Assembly: GCF_046119375.1 (NCBI RefSeq)
Contig: NW_027362772.1
Span: 279,000,001-279,064,000, forward strand
Direction: 5' to 3'
DNA: 64,000 nt
From: Phyllobates terribilis
Lineage: Eukaryota
Position numbers and translations under genes: made by a program. Positions 1 through 64,000 of this stretch are shown here, piece after piece (position 1 is the first letter of the stretch; every line of letters starts with the position of its first letter). The notes beneath the pieces were generated by a model, which saw only the letters and a list, made by a program, of their open reading frames with translations, searched no databases and was not told the origin of the DNA.

Positions 1-692
1 GGAGTAGCCCCTCCCTGGTAACGTTGGATGGCATTTGTTTCCAGGGGCTGCAGTCCTTTTATAGCCATGTCCTTAAGATTGTCAAAGGTGGCATCTGGAT
101 GATCCAGGGACCACCAACGCACAGTCCTGCTCTCCTCTGGAGACCTCAGTCCCCGGACAAACTGTTCCTTCAGCATTTTGTTCTCTTTCTCAACGCTGGT
201 TGGACTAACCTGGTTCAAAGCCCGCAGGGCCCCTTGAAGACGCCAGGCGTAGTCCCGAACATTGTCCTCTGGTTGTTGGGAGCAGCTGTAGAACCTCATC
301 CGGAGGGACGCCTCAGTAAGGTCCTCAAAAACAGTCTGTAGTTTTTGGAATATTGCGGACACTGACTCCTGGTCTGCGGCCGACCATGTTTCCACTTCCT
401 GTTCCGCAGCACCAGTCAGTTGTCCTAATACAACGGCGGCTCTTTGTTTGCCGGTCATGGAGTACATGTCCAAGATACCACATATCTTCCGTTTGAATCC
501 AGACAGGGTATCTGGTTTGTCGTTCTACTGGGGGAGCCACTTTGCTCCAGGAATGTACGGTAGAGTCATGGGAATTACAGGTGTTATAGGCGCTGCCGGT
601 GGCGCTGCGGCTTCGGCCTGCTCATCATCGGGCGTGGGTTGAACTTCAGGGACGTTGACCGGTAGGTCGGCGTTCTGCTGTTCGTCGGACAT
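1..692 (-). pseudogene. Gypsy gag of element A, with an in-frame stop; truncated by the window edge
   Basis: Manual translation: MSDEQQNADLP...MTLPYIPGAKWLPQ*NDKPDTL...LGQLTGAAEQEVETW...RFYSCSQQPEDNVRDYAWRLQ. This aligns to MPYIPGAAWLPQYSGE...QLTGAAKREVKSW...RFYGCKQ...IRDYALNLQ of B/C. TAG replaces a Tyr codon at 525-527. Confidence 0.85.
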
Positions 693-1055
693 CTTGGCAC
701 CCCCCTAGTTAACCGTGGCCTACCTTCTGGTTTTTCTTCCGGTAGGCCGCAGCTCCGCAGGTGACGGTTATCTTCAGGACCTTGCGTCACTTGCGTCCTA
801 CGTCAGCGCGTTCAGCGACGCTCCTTACAGGACCTGGCGCTTGTTAGTTTGACGTCAAGGCGTGGGGCGTGTCCGAGGCTTCGCGCTCTTTTGCAGGTAC
901 GCCCCTTATTTTCCCACGGTTACGCCCTTCTTCTCGCTCAACAGCCCAACAATGGCGGCTATCTTCACCACAACTTTACGTACACAGTTCAGAATAAAGG
1001 CGCACAGTACCCGGTGGCAACGGGCACAACACTCTGTCGTTGCAGCGGGCACGCA

Positions 1056-1073
1056 ATCCTGTTCGTGACGCCA
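1056..1073 (-). promoter_or_regulatory. Primer binding site matching the 3' end of tRNA-Ser(CGA)
   Basis: TGGCGTCACGAACAGGAT is the complement of ...ATCCTGTTCGTGACG-CCA, the vertebrate tRNA-Ser-CGA 3' end as I recall it. It lies 7 nt from the LTR end. Confidence 0.8.
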
Positions 1074-2228
1074 GGAAAGATGACTAGCCCAGGGGAATGG
1101 GGATGACTCGGTACCCGGGCCTTTGCCTTGGGGGTGTCGCGGTGGTCGGCTCCCGGGCCCGTACCATGGGGTCCCTCTTTAAAAGCGTTAATAGGTATTT
1201 ATTTTATACAAGTTCGTGACGCCACCTGTGGTTTCTGGTGAGAATCACCAGTGCTGCGGCAGTCCACTGAGGCCGATGATAAGGCAGCTGGTTGGTATAG
1301 CTCCCCACAGGTGGAGCTAGGCCTCAGGGCAGCGTGCGGAGAGGGGATGCAGGACAGGCGAGACCCAGCCGGGTCAGAGCAAGAACAGGGACAGACACGA
1401 TAGTCACTTCAGTACCTTTTACTGGTGGAAATTCAGGCACATCCCGGAGCACTGTAGGGTGAAGGGTGCATATCAGGATCCTCCCCAAAGAGCAGGTGTT
1501 AGGCCTCCTGTTGCTTGCTTCTGCGTAGTAAGTTTCTGACCTGCCTGGAGCTAGGCCTAACTTTGTCTCTGTCCTGCGCTGGCTGACCTTGTGATAGGGC
1601 CTTTTCTTGGAATACACGCTCCCGACTTACGGGGCCTATGTGTCTCCTGGCTCTGGTACGTATCAGCACTTTAGCGATCCTGGGACTTGTAGTACTCCAG
1701 GGATTCCGGTTTATCTTACTGGGTCATGGAGATCCCGGTAAGCTTCGGACCCGGTGTCCGGTAACTGCTTCTTCGGGGTGAGCTAATTAAGCTCCTCTGC
1801 CCCCTATGAACTAACTCTCTACTCGCCTTCGGCCTACTCGGGCCCTCAATAGGCTACTCACACTAATGGCAGCGTGCCGCGCTTCACCGATCTTATGGCG
1901 CCGGCACACCTAAAGCTCACCTCTCTGAGCTACGACTCAACTGGGCTCAACTCTGTATTCAGGTTTGTACTTGCTGAACTCTCCAGAGGAACTGCTGAGT
2001 CACTGAGCTCCACTGCAGACTGACCTGCTTCTGTGTCTCACTCTGCAGGAACTCCTCAACTGACTGAGCTGCCTGGCTCCACCTTCCCTTATATATCCCT
2101 AACGGGCTCCCTCTGGTGGTCTGAGGTGGAAGGTGGAGATGTGTGAATGGTTATGGGGGCCTCTTGCGGAGGAATCCTTCAATACACCCTTCTAGGATCT
2201 GTGATACCAAGCGCAGCTGGGCATCACA

Positions 2229-15734: not shown

Positions 15735-16473
15735 CTATTCGCCACTAGATCCCATAGGGAAGGTGGGCAACTGTTGTCCCGATGGGTGGGCATTGTGGAA
15801 GAGCTCTGTGAAAATCTGCCAATTGAATTGTTATAAAGCGTTAGCAGCAGCTTTAGACCCCTCAGCATAGTGGCTAGCGCGGACCCATACATTGTGTTTT
15901 AGGCACAGGAATGCTAGCCTGGGTAGTAGGCCTAGCACTGGGAGAGACGATGATGCCATCTTATTAATGCAGTGCGCTAAGCTGGTGTTTTTTGTTATGA
16001 AGCGTATATTTTTGTAAGCCAGGAGCGCGCCCCATATTTCTATTGCTACCACTATTGGGAAGAAAAATTATTTTCAGGGCTAGATGCAGCGAAAAATTAT
16101 TATTAATTGAAAAGCTGGTGGAGCTTGGTATAGATGGCCTAATACAATGAGACCCACACACTGCTAGAAGGCCAAATATTTTTTCAGAGTTAGATGCAGA
16201 AAAAAATTATATTCAGTTTGTAACCTGATGGAGGTCAGTATAGATGGACTAATAGAACAAGTCCCACACACTGCTAGAAGGCCAAATATTTTTTCAGAGG
16301 TAGATGCAGACAAAAAATTATTTTGAATTTGCAACCTGATGGAGGTCAGTATAGATGACTAATAGAACAAGTCCCACACACTGCTAGAAGGCCAAATATT
16401 TTTTCAGTGCTAGATGCAGAAAAAAATTATATTCAGTTTGCAACCTTATGGAGGTCAGTATAGATGGACTAAT

Positions 16474-44668: not shown

Positions 44669-45842
44669 TGTGACGCTCTCAGCCCTCACCCTGGGAAGTG
44701 GGTTTACTCAGAGCCGGGTCAGTTGTTGGGGGGGGTTGCAGTCGTGGCCCGGACCCGGTCCGTGCCCAGGGCGGTCACATAAAAGATTTAATGGGCTTTG
44801 AGTGGTAATTTTCCGACTACGCCACCTACGGTTTCCGGTGATGGACACCAGCGCTGTCTCAGTCCACTGAGGCCGGTGTTACGGACAGCTAAGATGGGAC
44901 GGCTCCCCGCAGGCGGAGCAGGCCTCAGGGCAGTGTGAGGAAGGATGGTGGGTCCAGTGCCACGCAGTAAATAACAGGCTGAAGCGGGGTGTGAAGTCAT
45001 CCAGGGTTTTTACTCACATTAAAATGAACTTTAGCCGCAAAGCTTCCCTCTGCTCCTCGCGGCGTGCTGCGGCCACCAGGAAGGGGGTCCAGCACTTTCC
45101 AGATAGATCAGGAGCACCTGTCAAGACCCCGTTGGTGTGTTCCTCTCCTTCTCCCTCACTTTCTCCTTCTCCTCCCGCTTGTGTCCCCCCTCCGGGATCC
45201 ACTAAGCCGCTGGGCTTTCCAACAGTGACGTGAAGTACACAGTCAGATATCGGGGGCCGGTCACCCCTCTTGCAGCAGGAGTTCCTCTGGCTTGGCCAGA
45301 GTGAAGAAATACAGGTGGCGTATGCCGCTCCGTCCGTATCCCCCAGGGATCCTTTTGCCTGTGGAGCTTGTCTCCTCTACTCCCCTCCAGGCCTTCTTAG
45401 GTAGGGACCTTGACCAGGTAGAGACAGTGGTTAACTCAGACCCGCTCCTTGTCTCAAGGCCAGAGCACGAGGACCGTGTATCTCCAATCAGCTGCAGGTT
45501 CTAACAGAAAGCCACGTTCAGTGATGAAGATCACAATCAAAAGACCTTGAACCTAAGATGGCCGTTAGTTAAATATGATGCTATTAGTGCATCCTAAAAG
45601 TGTGTCCTCCACCCTCACCCACTACATGGTTCCCCCTATCTTTGGTTCCCCCCCATCTCCTCTATCCCGGGACGGGGCAGCACCCTGGTGCATCTAGGCC
45701 CCCTACAGGACAGGAGTGGTGCAGTGTTGGGTGGTGAAGTAGGGTCCTGAGAAGTGCTCCATCCTTACCTGGAAGAGGAGATACCACACCTCTAGCTGAG
45801 GTGCAGTACCCCTGTGGCGACTGAACCCTCAGGGGCGCCACA
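44669..45842 (-). mobile_element. Solo LTR of the tRNA-Ser Gypsy clade
   Basis: TGTGACG...GCGCCACA, perfect TSD GAGT, internal CCGACTACGCCA at 44813-44824. It interrupts a short CTGCTACAT-type repeat. Confidence 0.88.
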
Positions 45843-48418
45843 GAGTCATCTCTGCTACATCACTACATTGGATCTCCTACCTACTCAACTCTGCTATATC
45901 GCTGGGCTCTACTACAGTGAGTCCCTTAAACTACTCAACTCTGCTACATTGCTGGGCTCTGCTACATTGCTACAGGTGTGAAGGAGGAGAGGTGCAAACA
46001 AGAGGGACCTGAAGGCCTCTCTCTGCCACATAAGAAGATACAAGTTTTATGAAAGGCACATTTTGCAATTAGGCCCAGAAGCTTTAAATCAAATGTCCAA
46101 CTACTATACTAGACTGAACAGAGAATTTTCTATAAGTTGGATGAATTTATTTAAATACTTTTATGAAATCACAGCCAAAATTCATTGTCTTAGTTTGGAC
46201 ACATTTATGAAATATGTTGGAACTGTAACAAGTTCTTAATATTTTTTAAGACAAATGCATACCCCTGGAAATGTCATTTTAACATTTTACAACCTTATCT
46301 GGCCATGTGGTGTGTGACACATTATCAGATACATCCTGTTTCATTTATGATGGAGGGACTCTAAAAGTCACAAAGCCTATTTTTATAGGGCCATCAGGCA
46401 GACTTACTATTCTTAAAAGGCCAGCAGTCGGCCTTCGCTATTGTTAGAGAGCCATCAGCCGGCTATGCTTTGTTGTTCCCATTATTAACGAGTGGGTCTC
46501 CTATACTGTTATTGCGTATGCAGTGATTGCAAGGGCTGCCAAAAATTCGGACGCAACCCAATACCCCTTTGAAGAGACATAGAGGAAGGTCTTAGTAAAA
46601 AAAATGTTCCCATTATAAAGGAGCGGATCTATTATAGTGGTAATGCCCATGCTGTGACTGCAAAACCCCACTAAGAATTTAAAGACACATAGAGCAGGGG
46701 CACAGTAACAAGTACGACATGTTCCCATTAGAAAGGAGCGGGTGTGCTATACAGTTATAGGGTATGCAGTGAGTCCAACGGCTGACCAAATTTAGGAAAA
46801 ACTCCACTAAGAATTTAAAGACACATAGAGCAGGGCCACAGTAACGAGAAATTCCCATTAGAAAGGAGAGGGTCTCCCATAGTGTTGGCCTATGCAGTGA
46901 ATGCAAGGGCTGCCAAAAATTGGGAGACACTTCAATGCTCCTTGGAAGAGACTTAGAGAGCCTCATAAAAAAATATTCCCATTAGAAAGGAGCGGTTCTC
47001 CTATACTTGTAATGCCCATGCGCTAAGTGTATGTGTGGCACCCCAGGGGTCTGGTTTTCCACAGTAATGTAATGTTATGTCTGAGAGCAGGTGGGAGGTC
47101 CTTTGGTCAGGGATCCTGTGCATGCCACACCTCCTGCCCAGTCTTGGGAGGGGAAGAACTTCCCCTGTATAAACCCGGGGCTGAGGCAGGGTGAGTCAGA
47201 CAAGGAGAGTGGAGAAGAGAAGCAGCATAGGAAACAGCAGAGTTACTAGGAGTCAGGGGCTGGCAGCTACAGAGCTCGCCCTGACTAAGAAGATTCTTTA
47301 CCGGACCCGGAGTCCGAGGCTGTGGGGACTAACTCCTACCCAGCAGCAGAATCCGTCGGGCAGGGGATTTCAGGTCCTCTGGCCCAGAAGCCCGAAGGCA
47401 CGGTCACACGCGTGGGACCAGCACCGCCATCGTGGAGCGGAAGCCATTAGAAGGCCCCGAGTCACCGGCCATACGGGTGAGCACCACACGGTACACTCAG
47501 GGACGTGGGCTACTTACATCAGCTTCTAGCAAGGTAGCCAGAAGAGTACAGTCAGTTTGGGAGGCCTACAACTACGCCTGGCCAGGGGAGATCCCATCTG
47601 CTCAAAGACTGACCAGGCCCCGTTTGCTAGCAAGTACTCCGGGAGGGTCTGTCGTTGTTACCAGTAAAGACCCTGAACTACACCGTACCGTCTCTGAGTG
47701 GTTCCTGCTACCCCCATCATCCACGTCGGCTGCCCTGAGGCCATACCCCTCCCGTTGGGGGTTATACTATCACGCTGCACAATCCCACCATCGGCCTCAG
47801 CGGTCTGCCCTGCAGCAGCAGCCCCCTGGCTGCACTCAACGGGTGGCGTAGTCATCAACCATTTACTACTAATGGACTGCCGTCTAGTTTGACTCCCTGG
47901 GCACGGACCGGGTCACCGCCACGAGACTACAACCCTCCACAGATCCGGCTCCGGGTAAGCTCCCGCATGCGCAGCGCAGCGCGACACAGGCCCAGGGGCG
48001 CGTCAACTTTGGCGTAGTCGGCAGGATTTCGTGCCCGCAACCACCGGGTACTGCGTGCCTGAAAAGCAAAGACTGTTCAAACTTACCAGTGGTGAAGATT
48101 CCCGCCATCCGCGAAGTTTTCCCGCCATCCGGCGCCATCTTCGACCTTCTTCCCGCCATCCGTGGAGTTTTCCCGCCATTGGACGCCATCTTGAGGACGC
48201 CGCGCGGGAAGAAGAGGGGCGTGGACTCCGAAAGCGCGCGAGAACTGAAGCCCCGCCTCACGTCCGGACGTTGCGTAAGGTCCTGGAAGGAGCCCAGCAG
48301 ACGCCGACGTCACAGGAGCGCGACGGAAGGTCCTCAACCCTGACGATCCACTGCGGAGCCGCGGCCTACGGAAGAGGATCATCGCAAGGTAGGCCACGGT
48401 CCACTAGGGGGGAGGAAG

Positions 48419-49399
48419 ATGTCGGATACGGAGGAGAGCTTCACTGCCCCAACCCCCGCCAGCGCTACCGCTGCTGCAGTTATGCCCTTCACCATGCCCT
48501 ATATCCCGGGAGCAGCTTGGCTACCCCAGTACTCAGGGGAGTCACATACCCTGCATGACTTTAGAGAAAAGCTGGATAGCCTCTTCCAGGTGTACCCCCT
48601 CACAGAAGAGCAAAAAGTGAGCATCCTGGTGGCCCAACTAACCGGGGCAGCCAAAAGGGAAGTAAAATCCTGGCCACCTGGGAGGAAGACTGTCGCAGGG
48701 ATACTAACCCGGCTGAAGGACACCTTTAATACCCGCACCTCAGCCGAGATTAAGCTTAGATTCTACGGGTGCAAGCAGCGAGCGCATGAGAGTATAAGGG
48801 ACTATGCACTAAACCTACAAGAGGCCCTGAGGGCCATAAAGCAGACCGACCCTGATGGGGTGGGAAACGAGGACAGGCTGTTGACTGAACAATTTATAGA
48901 GGGTTTATATTGCAATGCCCACCGAACCCAGTTGCGGGCAATGGCCTTACAGGATCCCCATCTGGACTTTGCACAGTTCAAGGACAGAGCCATCCGGGTG
49001 CTCCGAGAACCGGCACCAGGTGGCGTTGTGACCCACAGACGCCCCACTACCACTTACTACCAGGAGGCGGCGCCCTTGTCAGCAGGGCCTGTGGGAGCTG
49101 ATGCGCAGGCTTTGGACAATGACCCGGCTCCAGACCTACACCATCAGGTCCAAGAGCTAGCTAAGAGCGTTGCTGCGCTAACCCGAACTGTGCAGTCTTT
49201 ACAGGTTTCCACCCCAGGGAAGATCCAGCTGGCATCCGGACCGGAGGACATCCCGTGGCGTCGACCAAGGAGGACCCCACCGGCCAGAGGAAGACCCAGT
49301 GACCGATACAGCGAGGACGGACGACCCATCTGCCGCCGCTGCAATCAACCCGGACATATGGAAAGGTACTGTTCTTTAAACGGGCACAACCTGGGGTAG
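48419..49399 (+). CDS. Gag of element C, 326 aa, with a CCHC knuckle
   Basis: Intact ORF ending CRRCNQPGHMERYC. Confidence 0.93.
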   Translation: MSDTEESFTAPTPASATAAAVMPFTMPYIPGAAWLPQYSGESHTLHDFREKLDSLFQVYPLTEEQKVSILVAQLTGAAKREVKSWPPGRKTVAGILTRLKDTFNTRTSAEIKLRFYGCKQRAHESIRDYALNLQEALRAIKQTDPDGVGNEDRLLTEQFIEGLYCNAHRTQLRAMALQDPHLDFAQFKDRAIRVLREPAPGGVVTHRRPTTTYYQEAAPLSAGPVGADAQALDNDPAPDLHHQVQELAKSVAALTRTVQSLQVSTPGKIQLASGPEDIPWRRPRRTPPARGRPSDRYSEDGRPICRRCNQPGHMERYCSLNGHNLG

Positions 49400-49433
49400 A
49401 GGGCCAACCCCCAGGAAAAAGATCACCAGGCCC
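49375..49433 (+). promoter_or_regulatory. Predicted -1 ribosomal frameshift signal: slippery heptamer plus H-type pseudoknot
   Basis: T TTA AAC in the gag frame, 8-nt spacer, stem 1 CCTGGGG/CCCCAGG, stem 2 GGGCC/GGCCC. Confidence 0.75.
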
Positions 49434-49455
49434 ATCGAACTGGCGCGACAGATAT

Positions 49456-52400
49456 GTGGGAGGACGTCCAGTCTTGCCTGTGGTACTGGATGGCATTCCC
49501 ATGAGTGCCCTACTGGATACCGGGTCACAGGTCACCACCATCCCGTACGTGCTCTTCAAGCAGTACTGGAATGACTCGGATATTACCCACTACCCTGACG
49601 ACGACTTGAGTATCATCGCCAGCAATGGCCAGCCCGTGCCACAGATCGGATTTAAGGAGGTGGCCCTCAAAATCGGTAGAGTCGAACTGGCCGCACAGGG
49701 ACTGATCATTGTAGATATTGATAAACATGAGAGTCACCCAAAAATAACTCTAGGAACTAACGTAATTGAAAATTGTCTTGCAGAGGTGATTTTCCTTTTA
49801 CAGCAGGTTGCCAAGAACGCCAGCTCCGGCGAGCAGCGGGTGCTCCAGAAAGAGATCCGGGCACTGATGCAACGGCAACAAGTGGAACTCTCCGGCGGTG
49901 AGATTGGTAGCGTAAGAATGTGTGACCCTTTTCCTATTGCCATGCCCCCAAAAAGTGAAATGATGATTTGGTGCCGGGCAGCTATTGGTCTGAGAGGAAG
50001 AGATTACCAGGCAATGGTAGAACCAGTTTACTCAGACAGTAGGCCCACCATTTTGACAGCACGGGGGGTGGTCAATGTACGCCATGGGAGGGTGCCCATT
50101 CGCATAATAAATATCGGGGAGAGGGAAGTGTACCTGCCCCGGTATGCCACGCTAGCCAAATTATATACCACTAATCAAAATTCTATACAATCTGTGGAAC
50201 CCTTGCCTCCATCTCACCCGGAGGACGGTAACGGCTCTAAGAAAGACATGGAGGACTGGTGTCAGCAACTACATTTGGGTACTGATTCCACTCCCTCACA
50301 TCAGAAACAAGGAGTCTATCGGGTGGTTCAAGAGTATGAGAGAGTGTTTAGTAAACACCCGTTAGACTTCGGGCGAGTCAAGGGGGTAGAACACCGCATC
50401 CCCACGGGAGATCATCCTCCCATAAAAGAGAGGTATCGACCCGTACCCCCTGCACATTACCAACACGCCAAGGGGATGCTTAGAGACATGAAGGAGGCTG
50501 GGGTAATCCGGGATAGCTGTAGCCCCTGGGCAGCCCCACTAGTTTTAGTCAAAAAGAAAGACAACACCATGAGGATGTGTGTAGATTACCGGAAAATCAA
50601 CCGTATCACACACAAGGATGCGTACCCCTTACCAAGGATAGAGGAGTCATTGGCTGCTTTAAGATCTGCTAACTTCTTCTCTACCTTGGATCTCACTAGC
50701 GGGTACTGGCAGGTTCCTGTAGCAGAGGCGGACCGGGAGAAGACCGCATTCACCACCCCGATGGGACTTAGTGAGTTCACCTGCATGCCGTTCGGACTCT
50801 GCAACGCCCCAGGAACCTTCCAACGATTAATGGAGTGCTGTCTGGGCCACAGAAACTTCGAGACGGTCCTGTTGTACCTGGACGATGTCATCGTATACTC
50901 CAAAACTTATGAGGACCACCTGAAACACCTGGCGGAGGTGTTCGAAGCTCTGGCGAGTTACGGCCTAAAGGTGAAACCCTCCAAGTGTCACCTCCTGAAA
51001 CCAAAGGTGCAATACCTGGGACACGTGGTGAGCGCTGACGGAGTGGCTCCCGACCCCGATAAGATCACCGCAATTAAGGGATGGCCAAGCCCCTCCAGCG
51101 TAAAAGAAGTGCGGCAGTTCCTAGGGTTGGTAGGCTACTACCGAAGGTTTATTCCCGGTTTCACCAAAAAGGCAGCGCCTATGCAGGACCTCCTGATAGG
51201 CCAGTCCCGGAAGGCCAAGAACCAGAAGCCGCCCTTCAAATGGGAAGAGCTAGAAGAAGAGTCCTTCCGCCAGCTGAAGATGGCCCTCACGGGGGATGAA
51301 ATCTTGGCGTACCCAGACTATAGCCAGCCCTTCATCCTCTACACCGACGCCAGTAACATCGGGCTAGGAGCCGTACTATCCCAGATTCAGCAGGGGAGAG
51401 AACGAGTGATCTCCTATGCCAGCCGAAAACTGCGACCCACCGAAAGGAACCCCGAGAATTACAGCTCATTTAAGCTAGAGTTCCTGGCCGTGGTATGGGC
51501 AGTCACCGAGCGCTTTAGGCATTACCTCGCTTCTTCCCGGTTCACCGTATACACGGATAACAACCCGTTGATACACCTGGACACGGCAAGACTCGGTGCC
51601 CTGGAGCAGAGGTGGATGGCCCGTCTGTCCAACTACGAGTTCACAATCAAATACCGGGCAGGACGCTCCAATACTAACGCCGATGCCCTGTCCAGGATGC
51701 CCAACCTGCCGGACGAAGGAGAAGATCCGGAGGGACTGGAAGAAGTTGAACTCCCTGCGTTCCACCGTCATGGGACTATCCAGTATTCCCACCGGGTAAG
51801 GGGTAAACAGGCTGCTACGTTGAACCCCTTACCCCACTACAACTGGGCGGAAACGCAAGACAGCGACCCTGCCGTCCGACTGGTGAAGGAGATGCTGACT
51901 CGGCCGGAGGCTCGACTTGAACCAGACGCTCCGGAGGAAGCCAAACAACTATGGGCGGAGAAGAGTCGACTATTCCTTTACAAGGGGAAGTTGTGCCGCA
52001 GAATGGTCAACTCCCAGACGCATGAACTACTCTGGCAAGTAGTGGTGCCACGAAGAGATGCAGCCATGGTGATGGAGGCATACCACGACGGAGCTGGACA
52101 CTTCGGGTGGAAAAAGCTGGAGTTCCTGCTGCGCGAGCGGTTCCACTGGGTAGGCATGAGGGGAACCATCGAGAAGTGGTGCAGAGACTGTGGCCCGTGC
52201 AATCTGAGAAGGAAGGACCGGGCCAGCCAGAAGACTCCCCTGCAGTCCATCGTCACCCGGCAACCGTTGGAACTGGTAGCCTTGGATCATGTAAAACTGA
52301 CCCCAAGCAGAAGTGGCTACGTCTACGCGTTAACCATCGTGGATCATTACTCCCGGTTCTTGGTTGTCGTCCCCGTCAAGGACTTAACGGCTCAAACAGC

Positions 52401-53511
52401 AGCTAGAGCCTTCCAGCAGCACTTCTGCCGTCCACACGGGTACCCGGACCAAGTGCTGACGGACCAGGGACCTGCCTTTGAAGCGGAGGTCTTCCAGGAA
52501 TTCTGCAATCTGTATGGCTGCCGGAAGATAAGGACGACACCCTACCATCCGCAAACTAATGGACTTTGTGAAAAAATGAACCAGGTGGTAATGGATCTGC
52601 TAAAAACATTGCCCCTGGAAGAACGCAGTCTGTGGCCTGAGAAGTTGCCCGATCTGGTGGACCTATACAACCACATCCCGGTAGGTTCCACCAACTGTAC
52701 CCCGGCTTACCTAATGAGGGCGAGACCTGGTAAGTTACCTGTTGACCTGGAAATGGGAGTCCTGACACCTGAGGACACTTCACCAGAAACAGACTGGGAC
52801 ACAGAGAGGCAGCAGCAGTACCGGAGAGTACAAGAGAGCGTGGAGCGAAGTCTCTGTCAGGCTAGGGAAAGACAAGAGAAGACTTACAACCAGTATGCTC
52901 CCGCTGTTCCCCTGGTACCCGGAGAGCAGGTCTTGAAGAGGAAAAGACGGCTCCACAAGTTGGATGACCAGTGGGAGGAGGACCCGTACACCGTACTGCC
53001 CTCAAGCCACGAGAACCCGAAGGTCTGTACCATCAGTAAAGACGGAGGGGAAACCACAGCCATTGTATCCCGGGACCACCTGAAGAAGTGTCCCGAACAA
53101 CTGAGGAACCCTGAAGAGGAACAAGAAGACCATCGACCCGTGGAAGAAAGGGAAGATATGGTTAGTACCGTGCTCGGGGACTTCCCTCAGTCTTGGACTC
53201 AAGTCAATGGTGCAGTTGTGGTACCCGTACTCACCTTCCTCCAACCATCATCCCAAGAACCTACGGAGCAACGGGTAGAGCTGGAAGAACAGCCGGTCCA
53301 GGAGGCAGAAGACTCCACACAAGCAGAACAGGAGAATCAACCCTCTGCTTATAGTGAGCCTGCCGTACCCCTAGTGAGACAAAGAGCCGGTAGACAGCTG
53401 CCCAGTTTACCCTTGACAGCTCCTACACCCTGTAGTTCAGGGCCAGACAGTCAGCTCTGTAGGTCCACTCGGGCCACTAGAGGCCAGTTACCCGCACGCT
53501 GGAGAATTTAA
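49456..53511 (+). CDS. Pol of element C (PR-RT-RNase H-IN), probably expressed by -1 frameshift from gag
   Basis: Uninterrupted 1351-aa frame, -1 relative to gag. Motifs LDTGS, YLDD, YTDAS, HDGAGH...CGPC, LDHV, TDQG, NGLCE. Confidence 0.95.
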   Translation: MGGRPVLPVVLDGIPMSALLDTGSQVTTIPYVLFKQYWNDSDITHYPDDDLSIIASNGQPVPQIGFKEVALKIGRVELAAQGLIIVDIDKHESHPKITLGTNVIENCLAEVIFLLQQVAKNASSGEQRVLQKEIRALMQRQQVELSGGEIGSVRMCDPFPIAMPPKSEMMIWCRAAIGLRGRDYQAMVEPVYSDSRPTILTARGVVNVRHGRVPIRIINIGEREVYLPRYATLAKLYTTNQNSIQSVEPLPPSHPEDGNGSKKDMEDWCQQLHLGTDSTPSHQKQGVYRVVQEYERVFSKHPLDFGRVKGVEHRIPTGDHPPIKERYRPVPPAHYQHAKGMLRDMKEAGVIRDSCSPWAAPLVLVKKKDNTMRMCVDYRKINRITHKDAYPLPRIEESLAALRSANFFSTLDLTSGYWQVPVAEADREKTAFTTPMGLSEFTCMPFGLCNAPGTFQRLMECCLGHRNFETVLLYLDDVIVYSKTYEDHLKHLAEVFEALASYGLKVKPSKCHLLKPKVQYLGHVVSADGVAPDPDKITAIKGWPSPSSVKEVRQFLGLVGYYRRFIPGFTKKAAPMQDLLIGQSRKAKNQKPPFKWEELEEESFRQLKMALTGDEILAYPDYSQPFILYTDASNIGLGAVLSQIQQGRERVISYASRKLRPTERNPENYSSFKLEFLAVVWAVTERFRHYLASSRFTVYTDNNPLIHLDTARLGALEQRWMARLSNYEFTIKYRAGRSNTNADALSRMPNLPDEGEDPEGLEEVELPAFHRHGTIQYSHRVRGKQAATLNPLPHYNWAETQDSDPAVRLVKEMLTRPEARLEPDAPEEAKQLWAEKSRLFLYKGKLCRRMVNSQTHELLWQVVVPRRDAAMVMEAYHDGAGHFGWKKLEFLLRERFHWVGMRGTIEKWCRDCGPCNLRRKDRASQKTPLQSIVTRQPLELVALDHVKLTPSRSGYVYALTIVDHYSRFLVVVPVKDLTAQTAARAFQQHFCRPHGYPDQVLTDQGPAFEAEVFQEFCNLYGCRKIRTTPYHPQTNGLCEKMNQVVMDLLKTLPLEERSLWPEKLPDLVDLYNHIPVGSTNCTPAYLMRARPGKLPVDLEMGVLTPEDTSPETDWDTERQQQYRRVQESVERSLCQARERQEKTYNQYAPAVPLVPGEQVLKRKRRLHKLDDQWEEDPYTVLPSSHENPKVCTISKDGGETTAIVSRDHLKKCPEQLRNPEEEQEDHRPVEEREDMVSTVLGDFPQSWTQVNGAVVVPVLTFLQPSSQEPTEQRVELEEQPVQEAEDSTQAEQENQPSAYSEPAVPLVRQRAGRQLPSLPLTAPTPCSSGPDSQLCRSTRATRGQLPARWRI

Positions 53512-55127
53512 AGTGTATAAATTGTTTTATTTATGTTTTTCTGTGTATTGTTGCTTGTGAATAATTTTGTGTTTCCAGTTGTTTTTAGGAAACCTTGGTG
53601 GATTTACCGGGAATCCTTGTATATAGTTGGAGCGTAACCCAGGATGGACTAGAGACTGTTAAGGACTCGGGGTAGGACAGACCCCTACCTGGTTACGTCT
53701 CCCTGTGTTGGTGAAATGGACACCTTTGCTTTTCTTCAAAGACTGCACCCGGTTGCGGACACGCCGCAACCATCTTATGTGTTTTTCTTATAGTATTGTT
53801 ATTGTTATACTTTGTTATGTTTTTCTAAATGTGTTTAGTCCCGGAGTACTAAATTTCACTAGGGGGGAATGTGGCACCCCAGGGGTCTGGTTTTCCACAG
53901 TAATGTAATGTTATGTCTGAGAGCAGGTGGGAGGTCCTTTGGTCAGGGATCCTGTGCATGCCACACCTCCTGCCCAGTCTTGGGAGGGGAAGAACTTCCC
54001 CTGTATAAACCCGGGGCTGAGGCAGGGTGAGTCAGACAAGGAGAGTGGAGAAGAGAAGCAGCATAGGAAACAGCAGAGTTACTAGGAGTCAGGGGCTGGC
54101 AGCTACAGAGCTCGCCCTGACTAAGAAGATTCTTTACCGGACCCGGAGTCCGAGGCTGTGGGGACTAACTCCTACCCAGCAGCAGAATCCGTCGGGCAGG
54201 GGATTTCAGGTCCTCTGGCCCAGAAGCCCGAAGGCACGGTCACACGCGTGGGACCAGCACCGCCATCGTGGAGCGGAAGCCATTAGAAGGCCCCGAGTCA
54301 CCGGCCATACGGGTGAGCACCACACGGTACACTCAGGGACGTGGGCTACTTACATCAGCTTCTAGCAAGGTAGCCAGAAGAGTACAGTCAGTTTGGGAGG
54401 CCTACAACTACGCCTGGCCAGGGGAGATCCCATCTGCTCAAAGACTGACCAGGCCCCTTTTGCTAGCAAGTACTCCGGGAGGGTCTGTCGTTGTTACCAG
54501 TAAAGACCCTGAACTACACCGTACCGTCTCTGAGTGGTTCCTGCTACCCCCATCATCCACGTCGGCTGCCCTGAGGCCATACCCCTCCCGTTGGGGGTTA
54601 TACTATCACGCTGCACAATCCCACCATCGGCCTCAGCGGTCTGCCCTGCAGCAGCAGCCCCCTGGCTGCACTCAACGGGTGGCGTAGTCATCAACCATTT
54701 ACTACTAATGGACTGCCGTCTAGTTTGACTCCCTGGGCACGGACCGGGTCACCGCCACGAGACTACAACCCTCCACAGATCCGGCTCCGGGTAAGCTCCC
54801 GCATGCGCAGCGCAGCGCGACACAGGCCCAGGGGCGCGTCATATGGGCTGACAAACATTTACCCCTAGGGGGTATACATGAACATACTGTATAAAAAAAA
54901 AATTTTAAGGACATCATAAACACCCTTTAAAAAAATTATGTGGGTGTTCCATCACGGACCACGGTTACCCTGGTGATGTGGTGGTGGAGGATGAGGATGA
55001 GGAGGAGTAGGAAAAGAGCAAATAGCCAAAATCAGGAAGTGTATACCCATGTGTGGGTGTGAAAAGGTGCATGGGAATACACCTCCCAAAAAAAGACAGT
55101 GGATTTGAGTTTATGTTATGCTGCTAT

Positions 55128-58100
55128 TGTGGCGCCCCTGCGGGTTCAGTGGACACAGAGGTACTGCATCTCACCCAGAGGTGTGGTATCCCACTCTCAG
55201 GTAAGGATGGAGTACTGCCCAGGACCCAAACACCTGCATCCAACACTACACTACTCCAGACAGCAGGAGGGGCAAGATCCATTGCTGCGCTGCTGAGCCC
55301 TGACCCTGGCTGGAGTGGGGGGAACCAAGAGGGGAACTATGTAGTGGGTGTGAGTGGAGGAAGCAGTTCAGGGGAGCACTTGAGAAGGAGGATATAAAAA
55401 GGGGAAGCCATCTTGGGAGTGTGAGAACAGTCTGAGGGAACAGTGAGGAGAGAGTGTGTGGAGCAGGAGCTCTGCAGGAGCTCTGCTCAGGAGGAGGGCC
55501 TAGTGAGAGAGGCCCAGGACAGACTGAAGAGAGGAGAGGAACAGGAAGGAAGGCTCCAGAATAGAAAGGATCCCAGGGGCACGGGCAGTGCGGATGCCAC
55601 CCGTGCGCCCGAATCCACCAGGAGTGGAAGGATCAGGCCGCAGAGAGGGGACCGGCCCCTAAACTAGCAGAGTTCTTCAAGTCTCAACTAGATAACCGGA
55701 GGCTGCAGCATTTCAGGTGCTGCAGCCAACAGCCACATCTAATCGCTAAAAAGGTGACCATAGAGGACCCAGGGGACAGAGAAGACGTCGCCAGACAGTG
55801 TCCGCAGTCACTGGCTTGGGACACTCAGTGTGAGGCGCAGGGCAGGAGGGTGAGAGCCAGCGCAGGAAGACGACTAGAAAAGGCACACAGAACGGGGTCC
55901 CGTTACGTACTCCGGAGGTACCTGGGAGTTTGCTGAACCCCTCCCAGGGTAAACACAGGATGGCGTGGGGAGTTACCCTGGCCCTGGTAACTTGGAGTCT
56001 AAAAATCGTGAGTAAAACCCTGAAGACTGCACCCCACTGTCTCTGCGAATTATTACTGCGCCATCATCCCCTGCACCGCTCTGCACAACAGCAACATCTA
56101 TTACATCCCCACTACTCTGCCCTGGAGCTAAGCTCTACCCGTGGAGAGCTGAACCAACTCTGCTGCATTAACAACAGCTCCAGAGAACCTGCTCCACAGC
56201 GGTGGCTCCTTTTAGCCGCATACCACAGGTGGCGTCACGAACATTTCATAAAAACTATAATCCTTTTCTTTAAAACCCCTTTTAATTGACCGCCCTGAGT
56301 CACGGACCAGGTCACCGCCACTGTGACATCTCCCCTAGCAACGACAGGCCCGGCTACCGAGTACCCCACGGCCCAGGGGGCGCGTCATTATTTTGGCGTC
56401 ACGAACAGGATATGAACTTACCCGTTATCACCGGGTATTGTGCGCCTAGAGACTGTGTTCTATACTGAATGTGGCGCCCACCCTAGAAGAACGGGCGTCA
56501 TTATGTGCGTTATCAAGGATGACAAGAAACCTCCCATCGTAGGCCGGGTTCCAGAATGGCGCCAAAAGCACAACCCGCCCCATGCGCCTGTGGCCATATA
56601 CCTGGATCTGTCCATCAGTCTGGGGAAGCTGCCTCCGGGTGTGGCTGACAGCAAGCAGCCATGGGACCGCCCCAGAAAGGGGAGAGGAGAGAAGAAACCT
56701 GGGAGACAGGGCGAAGTTTCCAGCAGTCTAGACAGACCGCACCCGGCAGGCAAGATGGAGAGAGGTCAGCCTGAAGCTCCGTCTTGTGGTCTGCAGCCCG
56801 AGGCAGAACCCCTCACCATGGAGGGGATGCTAACAAAGTTGTCCCTGGAGGACACCAGCTTTATCCGGGATGAGATGCAAGAACTGGGCAGGAGGATGGA
56901 AGAGGCCCAGCAAGCTGCGATTGCTGCCTGAAGAGTGGACCTGGTGGAGAAGTTGATGACCCGGCAGCAGTCGGCGTTGCAAGTGACCGGCAGTGCTCCG
57001 GCCCCGGCGGAGCTGCACACAGACCAGGAGGTGTCAGTCGCGGGAGCAGGTAGGAGAGATCCCCCTGTCCTGGACGTGGCTGGCGCTGCTCCGTCCCTCT
57101 TCCCTCTGGCGGAACCTTGGTCTCCGGGCGCTCACGCCACAGAACTGCTCCTGGGCCTGGAACCATCAACCCCGGGCGCTGGTGATGCAGACCTGCTCCT
57201 GTGCCCCCTGCTAGAGCCACATGCCTCTACACCTGAATGGGTGTACGGACGCACGGCCTGGGACTGGTCCGCGGAGGTGGAAGACCAGAGCCTCCCGTTG
57301 CTGCCCTCTCCTGTGCTCTCAGTCGCCCACCAGGAAGAAGGAGATCCATTCCTGTGGGATAACCCGGGAGGGGACCTCATGGGCCTTCCCCGGGAGGAGC
57401 ATTGCCGGCGGGAGCTCCTGCAGTTGGAAAGGAGCGGCGCATCTGGCGGGTGCGCTGGGAGAAGATGGAGGCGAGGAACATGGAGGAGAAGACTCGGGCC
57501 CGCAAGGCAAAAACAGCCGCACCCAGTCCCCACGTAGAAGGGACTGTCGTGAAGTTCGACCTGGATGCCGGGTGGGGCTTCATCAGAGAGCCACAGGTCG
57601 CGACGGATTTATTTGTTAATCGGAGGGACGTGGAGTCCCACCTCCAGCAAGGACATCCTGACCGAGATCTGTACCCTGGTGACCGAGTCACCTACACCAG
57701 GCATAGAGGTGAGCGGCGCTGGTATGCCCTGAATGTATACAGGGTAGTGGAGGAGGACATGCCCCTGCAATCAGAGGCTGATGACCCGGCTGGGCCAGCC
57801 TACAGCAGACAGGTGTCTCCCCGGAGGAAGCACCACTACTAAGCACAGTATGTGAAACTGAACTGTACTGTATATAGTTAACCGGAAGGGTACATCCTTG
57901 TTTGAGTGAACTAAAAAGTTTTGTGTGCATGATTACCCGGTAAGGGTAAACAAACTGACAGGCTGAGGACTGTGAGCAGACAAAAACTTTTAAACTGTAC
58001 ATAGTTTGCACTTATTAAAGTGCCTCTTATTGGTGTTATATTAAAAGACCACTGAACAAAAACCTGTTTGGCGAGGCCGAAGATGTGGTCCAACAGCTGG

Positions 58101-58208
58101 ATCACCTATGCCCTGAAGCCACGCCCAGGGCCTACGTGGACGGTTTGCGGACAGGTCCCTCATGTTGCTCAAATTGCACCTTCTCCAGTGAGATGGACAC
58201 CCGGTTAT
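55128..58208 (+). mobile_element. Non-autonomous LTR element D carrying a cold-shock-domain ORF; interrupted at 58209, 3' LTR not in the window
   Basis: 1260-bp LTR at 55128-56387 (TGTGGCG...GCGTCA). PBS tRNA-Ser(CGA) at 56394-56411. No gag or pol motifs in the visible part. Confidence 0.8.
56503..57842 (+). pseudogene. Element D protein: N-terminal conserved block, coiled coils, DLMG motif and C-terminal cold-shock domain (57540-57743); one TGA and one frameshift
   Basis: GTVVKFDLDAGWGFI...DLFVNRRDV...LYPGDRVTY...YALNV matches the CSD RNP1/RNP2 pattern. TGA at 56929-56931 aligns to a Trp in E. About 1-nt deletion near 57427. Confidence 0.8.
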
Positions 58209-59939
58209 TAGTGTTGAGCGAGCACTAAAATGCTCGGGTGCTCGAAGCTCGGGCCGAGCTCGCCGTGATACTCGGGTGCTCGACCCGAGCAACGAGCCCA
58301 ATGTTAGTGACGCGCCCCCTGGGACATATTCCTTTTTGAGGGGAATACCCGGCACCGGATCAGATGGGGGGTTGTAGTCTCCGAGCGGCTGTGACCCGGT
58401 CCGTGCCCAGGGCGTCAAACTCAGTGTTATGTGGCAGTCCTACAGATGTTATTAAGAGTTCTTTTGTGTCGACTACGCCACCCGTTGTGATGCGGTCACT
58501 GTGGCCGCCGCTGCAGCAGGGTCCGCTGAGGCTGATGGTGGGTGCGCAGCTTGGTGGGATAACCCCCAACGGGAGGGGTATAGCCTCAGGGGGGACAGGT
58601 GCAGAGGATGGGGGTTGTGGTGGTGCAGTGCAGACGGCAATGAAGACAGAGTCGGGTTGTGCAGTTAAGGGTGTTTACTTACTGCAGATGTTGTACTGGT
58701 CACTCCAGCTTCGAGTGACCACCCGAGCCGTGCTGCGTCCACCAGGTCCTGGATCCAGCCAACCCCCAAACAAGTCCGGAGCGTGGCCCTGAGCTCTCCT
58801 TCTGTCCCGTTCTCTGGCCGTCCCCACCAGTGATCCACCTAGGTCCAGCTCCCTCGGGCCTTCTGTTGGGACACCCTTGGCCTTGGGTTCCCTGACCCTT
58901 CATGTGGTGTGCCTTCGGGGTGGATGTGATGGGTGACCGTGGCAAACGCTGCCCACGGTCTCCGGTCTCTGGCTAGGGTGTGTTTTCTGCCCCCACCAGC
59001 TTGGGTTCCGGTACCCTGTGCCGACTCCTCACCCGGTGCTTTAATTTGGGTTCTTGGGTCCTCTCTGTTTTCCCCTCTGGGTACTCCTTCTCTGCTCCTC
59101 TCTCACTCAGGGTCTTTCTTCTCCTCTGCTCGCTGACTTGTTCTCTGCATCTGACCCTGTTCTTAGTTGGTGCCCACCTTATATACACCCTCTATGTGTG
59201 AGCTCAGGTGACCAGCACCCAATGAGCTCCTATCTTTACCCAGGCTGCTCCCCCTATCTGCCCCTACACTACTTGGGATGTACCACCCCCCTCCCACTCC
59301 AGCCAGGAACAGACTCGGTCGTACCTGCACATTTCTAAGTGGGAGTACCGTCGGCCTGTTCCTCGGAAATGGGATGTGTGTAGTGCATGCAGCCTACCGA
59401 GCTCAGTTTCACACTCCTTCCTTACCCGGGAGTGGAATATCACACCTCTGGGTTGAGGTGCAATACCCCTGTAGCAGCCGAATCCTCAGGGTGCTACATT
59501 CCCCCCTGGTAAATCACAGCACGTCCTCGGGCTGTAAGACATAAATAACACCAAAACATACATTTTTTTTTTTCATAAACATATAAAACAACATATATTA
59601 GCAAATAAAACATTCTCGTCGCCTCTGGCTCCTCCTCCGGTCACTGTGCAACGTGTGACCGGGTACAGTGCGACAGTCTTTCTAGAAAACATAGTTTTCC
59701 TATAAAACCAGTAGGGGGCGCTTTAGGAAGCGCAACTATTTACAGGGGAAGTTGGCCGCTCTCAGTCCTCGGCCAGGTAAAGGGAAGGGAATGGCTGCTC
59801 ACAGTCCTCAGCCTGATATGGATACGGAATAACGGGTGAACAGTTCACTCAGCTGGTCCCAACGGGGACTATATATATGTAGCAACAGTTTCTTTGTACC
59901 CCGGTCGGGTAACTATTTACATCTACTGCTCTGCCGCAC

Positions 59940-60908
59940 TCAACGGCGTCTTCCTCCTGCTCTTTGCTTGTAGCTGGTTGTAACTTCAGACCCGTCCGGG
60001 TCCTCTTGCTCTTCCTCCTCACACCGCAGCTCTTCCTCCGTCAGGCGATGCACATGGAGGGCGTAGGGACCTTTGGCACACTTGTGCCGGGTGAAGGTGA
60101 CCTCGTCCCCGATGTAAAGGTCACGACCTCTGTGTCCCTCCGGTAGGTGGGACTCAACGTCTCTCCTGGTTACGAAGACGTCGCCTAGGGTGTGGTGGTC
60201 TCGGATGAAGCCCCACCCATGCTGCAGGTTAAACTTTATCACAGTCCCGGTGGTGCGGGGACTATGCGCTGCACGGGGGTCTCTCCTGGCCCGGCTCTTC
60301 TGCTCCGCGCTCCTTACTTGAGCTTGCTGTTCCCGGACCCGCCTCTCTCTCCGCTCCCTTGCGAACTCTTCGAGCTGCTGTCGGCAACACTCAGCACGCT
60401 CCGCTGCAGCTGCCCTGGTTTCCTGAGTGAACCCCATTAGATCTTCTCCGGTGGGGTCCCACTCAAACTGTGCTTCCGCTAGCGGGGGCGAGATCCGTGC
60501 CACGGGCTTCGGAGCCGGAATCAGGGGTTCATCCAGGGGTCTTAGTCTCTGCTGCCGTTCCAGCTCATGGTATTCTTCGGGCCAGATGAAGGGCCGACCG
60601 TCCGGCCATGTGAGCTGGCTGAACAAGACCTCCCCCAGGTGTGGCACCCTTGGTTTTACGGGCGCGGGCGCGGTGGTGGTGGCGCCCGGGTTGCCCAGGC
60701 CTTGCGGCCAGGCCTGGGGCACCTGGAAGGTGAAGGGCACCGCTAGGACGGCGGCGCCCTGGGCTACCTGGCCTTGCGGCCAGGCCGGAGGCTCCGCGGA
60801 GGTAGGGGGCGCTGTTGGTGATGCGGCGCCCGGGGGTACTAGGCCTTGCGACCAGGCTGGTGGTATTTCCTGCTTTGTCACGCTCCGGGTCGAGGCGCGT
60901 GACGTCAC
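59940..60908 (-). CDS. Element E ORF2 (322 aa): Pro/Gln-rich repeats, WDPTGEDLMG motif, coiled coil and cold-shock domain (60045-60248)
   Basis: GTVIKFNLQHGWGFIRDHHTLGDVFVTRRDVESHLPEGHRGRDLYIGDEVTFTRHKCAKGPYALHV. The start codon is a GTG overlapping the ORF1 stop. Confidence 0.75.
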   Translation of the reverse strand: MTSRASTRSVTKQEIPPAWSQGLVPPGAASPTAPPTSAEPPAWPQGQVAQGAAVLAVPFTFQVPQAWPQGLGNPGATTTAPAPVKPRVPHLGEVLFSQLTWPDGRPFIWPEEYHELERQQRLRPLDEPLIPAPKPVARISPPLAEAQFEWDPTGEDLMGFTQETRAAAAERAECCRQQLEEFARERRERRVREQQAQVRSAEQKSRARRDPRAAHSPRTTGTVIKFNLQHGWGFIRDHHTLGDVFVTRRDVESHLPEGHRGRDLYIGDEVTFTRHKCAKGPYALHVHRLTEEELRCEEEEQEDPDGSEVTTSYKQRAGGRRR

Positions 60909-61768
60909 AGGGGTCGCTGCGGCGGCTTCCGGTTGGGCCTAGTCCATAGCGGTGACATGGCGGCTACGGGCACAGCAGGGGGACTTTCGGGCTCTGCGAC
61001 GGGGAGCTGGGGCAGGTACGCGGTTTCCCGGTTTGGGGTGTAGGCGTCCCCTTTACCTGCCTCCATGCGTTCGGCTCCCTTCTCGGCGTCGTCTCCGGCC
61101 TTTGGTCCTCCCGCGCCATCCTCAGAGGCGGTCTGTTTCCTCTTCCAGGGTAGCGTGCTCCGTTGACTGGTCTCAGCTTGCTGGGCCATCTCCCGGCTCC
61201 ATTCCGCCAATATCTCGCGCTGTACCCGGGCCATCCTCCTTGCGAGGCCCTCCAGAGCGGTCTGTGCACACTCCCGGTCTCGGGGGAGCTGTGCAAGGAC
61301 CTCCACTAGGCCTAGTGGGGTCGTGGTGTCTAGCAGGCTCCTGACCAACGGGTCGGTGCTGCTCTGCTCTTCCTCCAGCAGGCTCCTGGCCAGCGGGCCG
61401 GTGCTGCTCTGCTCGCCTTCCTCGGTCTCTAGCAGACTCCTGGCCAGCGGGCCGGTGCTGTTCTGCTTTCTCTCCATGTCCGGGTAAGCTCCTCCGCTAC
61501 TCCTCGTTAGACTTCTTGCCTCCGGGTGCGCTCGCTCCAGACTGCTCCAGGCGGCACCCATCTTCGTTCTTTTCTTTCGTCTCCTCCCACTTCGAGGGCG
61601 GTCCCGGGGCAACTCGGTGACTGTCAGCTCCAGGGGCAGTTCTTTCACGCTGACAGACACCTCTAGCATCACAGTCTCTGTTGGTGGGGGCGGTTTCCAC
61701 TTTTGGCGCCATTTTCTGTCCTGGCCCACGATGGGAGGCGGCCTCCTGCCCTCCTTTGGCACGCCCAT
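60905..61768 (-). CDS. Element E ORF1 (287 aa from the first ATG; frame open from 62047): N-terminal block and coiled coil shared with D
   Basis: MGVPKEGRRPPPIVGQDRKWRQKWKPP...LP...PRDRPRSGR aligns with D MCVIKDDKKPPIVGRVPEWRQKHNPP...LP...PWDRPRKGR. Confidence 0.65.
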   Translation of the reverse strand: MGVPKEGRRPPPIVGQDRKWRQKWKPPPPTETVMLEVSVSVKELPLELTVTELPRDRPRSGRRRKKRTKMGAAWSSLERAHPEARSLTRSSGGAYPDMERKQNSTGPLARSLLETEEGEQSSTGPLARSLLEEEQSSTDPLVRSLLDTTTPLGLVEVLAQLPRDRECAQTALEGLARRMARVQREILAEWSREMAQQAETSQRSTLPWKRKQTASEDGAGGPKAGDDAEKGAERMEAGKGDAYTPNRETAYLPQLPVAEPESPPAVPVAAMSPLWTRPNRKPPQRPL

Positions 61769-64000
61769 AATGGCGTCCGCTGCTCTTCCAAGGCGGGAAA
61801 TCTTCGGATTTGGCGGGAAGCGTCGCCCAGTGGCGGGAAACTCTGCAGATGGCGGGAACAAGCTGGAAATGGCGGACAATCGGCGGGAAACGACCTGTGA
61901 TGGGGTCCGATGGCGTGGACCCTCCGGAACCGGCGGGAGACTTCTTTCTGAGGTAAACTTGCACTTTTCTTCAGGCACGCAGTACCCGGGTGTTGCGGGC
62001 ACGTAATCCTGCCGACTACGCCAAAGTTGACGCGCCCCCTGGGACATATTCCTTTTTGAGGGGAATACCCGGCACCGGATCAGATGGGAGTTGTAGTCTT
62101 CCGAGTGGCTGTGACCCGGTCCGTGCCCAGGGTGTCAAACTCAGTTGTATGTGGCAGTCCTACAGATGTTATTAAGAGTTCTATCCTGCCGACTACGCCA
62201 AAGTTGACGCGCCCCCTGGGACATATTCCTTTTTGAGGGGAATACCCGGCACCGGATCAGATGGGGGGTTGTAGTCTCCGAGCGGCTGTGACCCGGTCCG
62301 TGCCCAGGGCGTCAAACTCAGTGTTATGTGGCAGTCCTACAGATGTTATTAAGAGTTCTTTTGTGTCGACTACGCCACCCGTTGTGATGCGGTCACTGTG
62401 GCCGCCGCTGCAGCAGGGTCCGCTGAGGCTGATGGTGGGTGCGCAGCTTGGTGGGATAACCCCCAACGGGAGGGGTATAGCCTCAGGGGGGACAGGTGCA
62501 GAGGATGGGGGTTGTGGTGGTGCAGTGCAGACGGCAATGAAGACAGAGTCGGGTTGTGCAGTTAAGGGTGTTTACTTACTGCAGATGTTGTACTGGTCAC
62601 TCCAGCTTCGAGTGACCACCCGAGCCGTGCTGCGTCCACCAGGTCCTGGATCCAGCCAACCCCCAAACAAGTCCGGAGCGTGGCCCTGAGCTCTCCTTCT
62701 GTCCCGTTCTCTGGCCGTCCCCACCAGTGATCCACCTAGGTCCAGCTCCCTCGGGCCTTCTGTTGGGACACCCTTGGCCTTGGGTTCCCTGACCCTTCAT
62801 GTGGTGTGCCTTCGGGGTGGATGTGATGGGTGACCGTGGCAAACGCTGCCCACGGTCTCCGGTCTCTGGCTAGGGTGTGTTTTCTGCCCCCACCAGCTTG
62901 GGTTCCGGTACCCTGTGCCGACTCCTCACCCGGTGCTTTAATTTGGGTTCTTGGGTCCTCTCTGTTTTCCCCTCTGGGTACTCCTTCTCTGCTCCTCTCT
63001 CACTCAGGGTCTTTCTTCTCCTCTGCTCGCTGACTTGTTCTCTGCATCTGACCCTGTTCTTAGTTGGTGCCCACCTTATATACACCCTCTATGTGTGAGC
63101 TCAGGTGACCAGCACCCAATGAGCTCCTATCTTTACCCAGGCTGCTCCCCCTATCTGCCCCTACACTACTTGGGATGTACCACCCCCCTCCCACTCCAGC
63201 CAGGAACAGACTCGGTCGTACCTGCACATTTCTAAGTGGGAGTACCGTCGGCCTGTTCCTCGGAAATGGGATGTGTGTAGTGCATGCAGCCTACCGAGCT
63301 CAGTTTCACACTCCTTCCTTACCCGGGAGTGGAATATCACACCTCTGGGTTGAGGTGCAATACCCCTGTAGCAGCCGAATCCTCAGGGTGCTACATTAGT
63401 CTATGGAAGACCCGAGCAGTTTTGCGGTGGCACCCCCGGCAGTCTTTTAAAAGCTTAACAAGTGCCCAAAACGATAGTGACAGTGCTCAAATGACATGGG
63501 GACAGCATGGGGATCGCCCCAGGAAGCATTTCTAACCCCCAGGTCATTGCTGTCAACAACGTGGTCAGAGGTATTAAGCCACTTTTAAGGGCTCACAATA
63601 AAACGTTCAAAAACGAAACTGAAACTGCTTTACTGTGAAATATGTTAAGGAAGTTCCTTTCCAGGGTAAAGACTTGTGTATAAGATAAAATAAATAACCC
63701 CCCCAAAAAATACTCCACCACACCTTGGGCTATGTTCACAAGTAGCATTTTTTTATGCGTTTTTGCACTTTTGTATTGCTTTCAACCGTGACAAATGCAT
63801 TCACAGGGAAATGTCATTTTAACATTTTACAACCTTATCAGGCCATGTGCTGTGTGACACATGCATACAGTGCTGAAAGACATGGGAACAGCATGGGGAA
63901 GACCCCTGGAAGCATCTCTGACACCCAGGTCACCGCCTAAAAGTGTGCCCATCAGTAGTGATCCTTGCCGCATCAGAAGATGCAGACTTGCAACTATCCC

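Follow-up and report, generated by a model that had tools for sequence, protein, structure and literature searches.

The window analysed in this study, a whole stretch of 64 kb (G000:C12:279000001-279064000) from a 10.6-Gb genome, consists of nested Ty3/gypsy, Tc1 and hAT elements. Element D lies on its forward strand and is a complete, old and broken copy of an LTR retrotransposon of about 4.6 kb without gag and pol; uninterrupted D-like copies are also about 4.6 kb long. Its 1260-bp 5′ LTR (55128..56387) starts with TG, ends with CA and contains TATAAAA at 55393. It pairs with a 3′ LTR located 9.4 kb past the window end (G000:C12:279073440-279074692; 73440-74692 in extended window coordinates), beyond the window as the original prediction had expected, and no gag or pol match was detected between the two LTRs. 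D thus does not continue into gag-pol, whereas such a continuation had been named beforehand as refuting the original proposal. At 17 D-like loci, pol matches were present at three, all outside the D-like segments. The LTR pair of D is 95% identical, with 49 substitutions in 1249 columns (30 transitions, 19 transversions, 15 gap columns). The K2P distance of 0.040 corresponds to about 8 My at 2.5e-9 per site per year, the rate in the available text of bioRxiv 2023.11.06.565769, so that an insertion age of about 8 million years is likely. The 5′ target site duplication (TSD) reads CTAT (55124..55127) and the 3′ copy, beyond the window, reads CCAT. The expected 4-bp duplication was therefore present, its length backed by an empty paralogous site, but the 3′ sequence matched at three of four bases only.

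The 18-nt primer binding site (PBS) of D (TGGCGTCACGAACAGGAT, 56394..56411) is complementary to the 3′ end of tRNA-Ser(CGA). One of the six matching genomic loci examined was a tRNA-Ser(CGA) gene, in line with the primer originally assigned, and the rest were PBS extensions of elements. A single ORF follows on the same strand (56503..57842), interrupted twice, at 56929-56931 by a stop and near 57429 by a frameshift. It codes in order for a basic N-terminus, helix A, a Pro-rich linker, a charged helix and a cold-shock domain (CSD; 57528..57755), which matched Pfam PF00313 with 33.5 bits against a cut-off of 27 and was modelled as a five-stranded barrel. The start ATG at 56503 is kept in all nine open copies of the D/E/F group examined. 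The first part of the 3′ UTR occupies 57843..58208, and its remaining 263 bp (extended 73177-73439) carry the polypurine tract that precedes the 3′ LTR. Between these parts lies a hAT-like DNA transposon of about 15 kb, which starts at 58209, runs through the window end at 64000 and ends at extended position 73176; it has 13-bp terminal inverted repeats and no TSD, and 4 bp were lost at its insertion. D had been inserted in one hAT-like element and was itself broken by this related hAT-like copy.

Element E (58308..63395, reverse strand) is nested in the hAT-like transposon, with identical 1.19-kb LTRs, the TSD TTAG and a Ser(AGA/TGA) PBS. Among 20 loci matching this PBS were tRNA-Ser genes with the anticodons AGA (3) and TGA (2), which fits the AGA-type primer first proposed. 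Its CSD is located at 60033-60260 and its ORF is split by a frameshift. E also carries a 177-bp duplication of U5 and PBS (62028-62204), and the same kind of duplication occurred in another copy (L111). In five further copies (L061, L062, L064, L065 and L066) the complement of tRNA-Ser extended well past the 18-nt PBS, as in an over-read primer.

Two gag-pol Ty3/gypsy elements in the window are candidate helper types. The one at 1..2228 (reverse strand), whose pol and 3′ LTR run on upstream outside the window, has the same Ser(CGA) PBS as D and a U5 that is 72% identical to that of D over 154 nt. The other (47034..54841, forward strand) has a Ser(AGA/TGA) PBS, and its U5 is 74% identical to that of E over 273 nt. 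A solo LTR and an LTR fragment (10952-12135 and 45605-45842) are 70-76% like the LTR of D, the D-like solo LTR sitting within a hAT remnant. An intact chromodomain Ty3/gypsy element encoding 1375 aa (16465-21450) was inserted in a satellite array with a 108-110-bp period.

Conservation of the reading frame between D and E

The LTRs of D and E were found to be as unlike as claimed, since blastn aligned only a 79-bp piece at the 5′ end (80% identical) and a 37-bp piece at the 3′ end. The CSDs share 44 of 76 residues with zero gaps in 76 codons; the earlier figure of about 60% (41/68) is the best 68-residue window, other windows giving 39-40. At the DNA level the CSDs are 61-63% identical, with identities of 0.66, 0.74 and 0.43 at the three codon positions, and pS was 0.71 (near-saturated) against a pN of 0.28. 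In global alignments the CSD reached 63% (shuffled 47%) and the non-coding flanks 46-57% (shuffled 43-49%), with z values over the shuffled sequences of 17 and 7-10, respectively. The domain is conserved above the flanking DNA, as the original prediction required.

The statement that the linkers barely align was right for the Pro-rich linker, which is 16% identical and gappy between the open copies L030 and L044, but not for the other parts, because the N-terminal block (45%), helix A (29%) and the pre-CSD helix (39%) align along with the CSD (55%). Between the same two copies, pN/pS was close to 1 in the linker and had its minimum, 0.40, in the CSD. By these alignments, the conserved unit in the D/E/F group is the whole ORF, beyond the CSD alone. 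In the N-terminal block (56503-56755 in D), pS between lineages was 0.36-0.50 versus about 0.7 elsewhere, which suggests that a signal in the RNA, for example one for packaging, overlaps the coding sequence there. In a profile comparison, helix A (56800-56960) weakly matched the TNFR1 death domain (E 0.0015); Pfam did not back this match in any of 29 members, and it is probably a chance match.

The stop of D aligns opposite a Trp of E, as had been noted, in an invariant column of the helix-A alignment. A sense codon stands at this position in 14 of the 17 D-like copies that could be aligned, and the same stop in 3 of 17. D shares its stop with the D-like copy L002, its sister in the tree (support 0.966), and the stop may therefore predate the insertion of D.

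Selection was analysed in 36 distinct D-like CSD copies, which were picked by protein similarity, a choice that biases dN downwards, and include three near-duplicates. Variants shared by at least three copies comprised 87 synonymous and 39 non-synonymous or stop changes (dN/dS 0.14), and private variants comprised 33 and 69, respectively (dN/dS 0.66; Fisher p 3.6e-8). This pattern is expected if selection acts while a lineage transposes and is relaxed after insertion. In the D/E/F group, and likewise in the H group, a further lineage described below, every unsaturated within-group pair gave dN/dS of 0.09-0.27. Judged by these substitution patterns, the CSD gene is under purifying selection within and between lineages, across several element lineages and primer tRNAs, so that the claim of selection across at least two lineages was supported. 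Signs of rapid adaptive change were absent from the element CSD.

Copies, relatives and origin of the cold-shock domain

Exact matches to a fixed-spacing codon motif of the D/E/F-type CSD numbered 14,975 in the whole genome (control, 0), and protein searches of the genome returned about 37,000 unscored first-look candidates. From the first 100 motif matches listed, 20 copies were sampled at about every fifth row, with D-like rows added on purpose; ratios among the 20 are accordingly not frequencies. An LTR pair was present in 18 of these copies and gag or pol inside in none. Fifteen were E-type, with the Ser(AGA/TGA) PBS and LTRs 97.9-100% identical, and 13 of them had at least 630 open codons. 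The other five were D-type with the Ser(CGA) PBS; the ORF was broken in every one, and the LTRs were 94-96% identical in the three that had an LTR pair. F-type copies have a CSD 63-71% identical to that of D, yet an AGA-type PBS, which indicates that the primer changed within the D/E/F group. The H lineage has different LTR ends and an ORF with only the CSD in common with D/E/F. Some of its elements (L138-L139, G000:C3:355459000-355475000) form head-to-tail arrays with shared LTRs and a 3.64-kb period. Around the rare divergent CSDs L077, L124, L153 and L154, no LTR pair or PBS was found.

Relatives in frogs other than Phyllobates are known from proteins alone, and the public sets P0001, P0002 and P0004 were not counted as independent of the genome studied here (G000). 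Among the best 150 hits of the profile search, eight of ten further single-domain hits came from Ranitomeya variabilis, Anomaloglossus (3), Bufo (2) and Engystomops (2). R. imitator has one D/E/F-type protein and one L124-type protein. The sequence WRSRQD, which is the Ser(AGA) PBS in translation, occurs in one Anomaloglossus protein, and two other frog proteins match the D/E/F ORF profile beyond the CSD. Gene models in P0002, P0004, P0005 and P0166 join the element ORF to an R3H protein, a transposase-like ORF, an astacin-type protease and a serine protease; these joins are likely annotation artefacts.

In a tree of 41 rows and 76 columns, 26 frog element-type CSDs formed one clade (95/91), and the D/E/F rows formed another with those of Ranitomeya and Anomaloglossus (100/99). 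The divergence of these frog families dates back tens of millions of years. Since all element CSDs fall in one clade, a single ancient capture that was then kept for long in many lineages is likely from the tree, rather than repeated captures. The original view that the CSD was not a one-off capture thus holds as to long retention across lineages, and its extension to several captures was not supported.

The element CSD is predicted to fold as a five-stranded barrel (AlphaFold, pLDDT 83), for which Foldseek gave YBX2 as the top match and TM values of about 0.75-0.8 to YBX and Csp structures. Against the PDB, the CSD profile scored 54.8 bits with YBX1, ungapped over 69 positions, 42.7 with CspA and 20 with LIN28; a single-sequence phmmer search with the CSD of D gave no PDB match at E 0.01. 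The placement among YBX, LIN28, CSDE1 and bacterial domains proposed earlier was achieved partly: LIN28 scored low and CSDE1 was rejected as donor, its domains reaching only 14-15 bits, but Y-box-like (43-51 bits) and bacterial (42-51 bits) domains tied in the tree search. A clade of element and Y-box domains was neither recovered nor rejected (p-AU 0.415, in a tree without an intact vertebrate YBX row). The loop length is Y-box-like, which makes a Y-box origin of the element CSD likely. An isolated Y-box-like CSD pseudogene fragment (L087, G000:C11:349412850-349413071), used as a query against the genome, matched itself only. A processed retrocopy of CSDE1, disrupted by LINE-like insertions and duplicated in part, lies at G000:C1:734436000-734449400 (L097-L099), and the spliced CSDE1 gene appears to be at C2:702.8 Mb.

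The RNP1/RNP2 aromatics W16, F18 and F29 are invariant in all 36 D-like copies. The strand-1 Trp of YBX is replaced by K in all 36, the RNP2 His is also replaced, and an extra W/Y is present on strand 5. With the Trp and His absent, the predicted nucleic-acid binding may be weaker or different.

Possible mobilisation and comparison with known systems

The matches in PBS and U5 between D or E and a gag-pol element suggest mobilisation in trans. We lean slightly towards a mechanism in which the CSD protein of this pol-less family binds its own RNA and aids survival and packaging of that RNA in helper gag-pol particles, with a partial cis preference. A helper Ty3/gypsy element with the same primer tRNA would supply Gag and Pol in trans, while the CSD protein would bind the element's own RNA, protect or fold it, and favour its packaging into helper particles. 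A partial preference of the protein for its own RNA would allow selection to act on a gene of a non-autonomous element. E has identical LTRs yet a frameshifted ORF, and the stop of D occurs also in its sister. Copies with a broken ORF thus appear to have moved, which argues for a partial or shared benefit of the protein and against a strict need for the ORF in cis. The host Y-box protein YB-1 aids HIV RNA metabolism and virion output, according to the available text of PMC6040738.

The transposition of broken copies would also fit an anti-silencing or decoy factor, that is, a protein that would rival the host's own Y-box or piRNA-pathway proteins in oocytes and aid element and helper RNAs in trans. 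The RNA-binding surface that departs from YBX and the repeated capture of CSDs by bird ERVs (PMC12287698, as far as its available text goes) agree with such a role. However, a purely trans benefit is open to cheating and explains the strong lineage-specific purifying selection less well, and a CSD without signs of rapid adaptive change is not what a decoy suggests; we consider it rather unlikely.

A derived Gag substitute is improbable. Here the ORF would build its own RNP, the helices assembling and the CSD replacing nucleocapsid, and only Pol would come from the helper. The ORF does stand in the gag position behind the PBS with a layout of helix, spacer and RNA-binding domain, and the single 71-kDa ORF of Xenopus 1A11 is called Gag-like in the accessible part of PMC4585706. 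However, hhalign gave the non-CSD part a 0.1% probability against local Gag, from a Gag alignment of only three local sequences, and Pfam detected only the CSD, and no Gag domain, in nine of nine element ORFs. The single-sequence AlphaFold model of a full E-type ORF is of low confidence (pLDDT 45), usable for two long helices only and without a capsid fold. Moreover, Pol is normally packaged as Gag-Pol.

That the open frame only stabilises the RNA, or that an RNA-level signal is conserved and the CSD protein has no role, is very improbable: the low pS of the N-terminal block fits an overlapping signal there, but within the CSD the residues are preserved despite saturation at synonymous sites, D and E align over its 76 codons without a gap, the aromatics do not vary, and pN far below pS largely refutes this reading for the CSD. 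Equally improbable is host selection that maintains the CSD genes as a domesticated family of benefit to the frog. The gene annotations of several frogs do include some copies, but the copies are dispersed, number at least 14,975 and have young LTRs as well as TSDs; private mutations, stops included, are near neutral, and all five D-type copies sampled are broken.

Extending the favoured mechanism of helper particles and an RNA-binding CSD protein, we tentatively propose, at a little short of even confidence, that hyloid frogs host ancient 'satellite' LTR elements. These would have dropped gag and pol, used a captured Y-box-derived RNA-binding gene to commandeer Ty3/gypsy particles, switched their primer tRNA to follow helpers and passed the CSD module between unrelated backbones, multiplying to tens of thousands of copies within the giant genomes of poison frogs.

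A search of the full-text literature, with Repbase, subscription journals and supplements outside its scope, returned no report of this frog CSD family. The family is not described in the available parts of PMC10886601, PMC6431247, PMC6278860, PMC7540406 or the dyeing-poison-frog preprint, and the poison-frog TE papers had no 'cold shock' or 'Y-box' passage. Capture of a CSD by LTR elements and single-ORF frog LTR elements are known; a pol-less frog family with a selected CSD gene appears to be new, no report having been found. In one poison-frog genome, 66,046 LTR elements are classed as 'Unknown' (available text of bioRxiv 2023.11.06.565769), and the present family is a candidate part of such unclassified LTR content in giant poison-frog genomes. 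It also accounts for spurious frog gene models that are annotated as 'Y-box-like' or 'CSD-containing'.

The family shares with YBX1/YBX2 (FRGY2) the best PDB sequence match, the same long loop and the top fold match, but differs in its identity of about 30%, the absence of the strand-1 Trp and RNP2 His, and its intronless, element-borne state. Y-box proteins have an N-terminal CSD followed by a long charged tail, whereas in D/E/F the CSD stands near the C-terminus behind unrelated helices. LINE-1 ORF1p, in which a helical region and an RNA-binding domain act as an RNA chaperone with cis preference, is only a works-like analogy, being unrelated in sequence and fold and part of an autonomous non-LTR element.

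The usual view of non-autonomous LTR elements is that they code for nothing or for Gag alone; LARD elements are non-coding and TR-GAG elements encode Gag. The frog elements resemble both in having LTRs, PBS, polypurine tract and TSD, no pol, a length above 4 kb and a probable helper dependence. Unlike LARD, they carry an ORF of 460-610 aa under purifying selection, and unlike TR-GAG, their ORF showed no similarity to Gag and encodes a protein with an RNA-binding domain. With a host-type RNA-binding gene that the elements maintain by selection of their own, these parasites of parasites offer a rare case in which an accessory gene can be measured.

Xenopus 1A11 and Xretpos, single-ORF LTR elements expressed in embryos (PMC4585706), are likewise frog LTR elements with one long ORF. 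The available text of that paper calls the 1A11 protein Gag-like and leaves a CSD unmentioned, so that 1A11 is set apart by description, not by sequence. CSD capture was reported in 46 bird ERVs, in several independent events and at varied positions (He et al. 2025, PMC12287698), and this convergence is read as possibly adaptive in the available text. Like these ERVs, the frog elements bear a host-type CSD (PF00313) on LTR retroelements. Unlike them, which are retroviruses, the frog family is Ty3/gypsy-associated and pol-less, has the CSD gene as its sole gene and reaches at least 15,000 copies; its CSDs form one clade across several frog families, with purifying selection measured. Its thousands of natural copies make the adaptive value proposed for CSD capture in bird ERVs testable.
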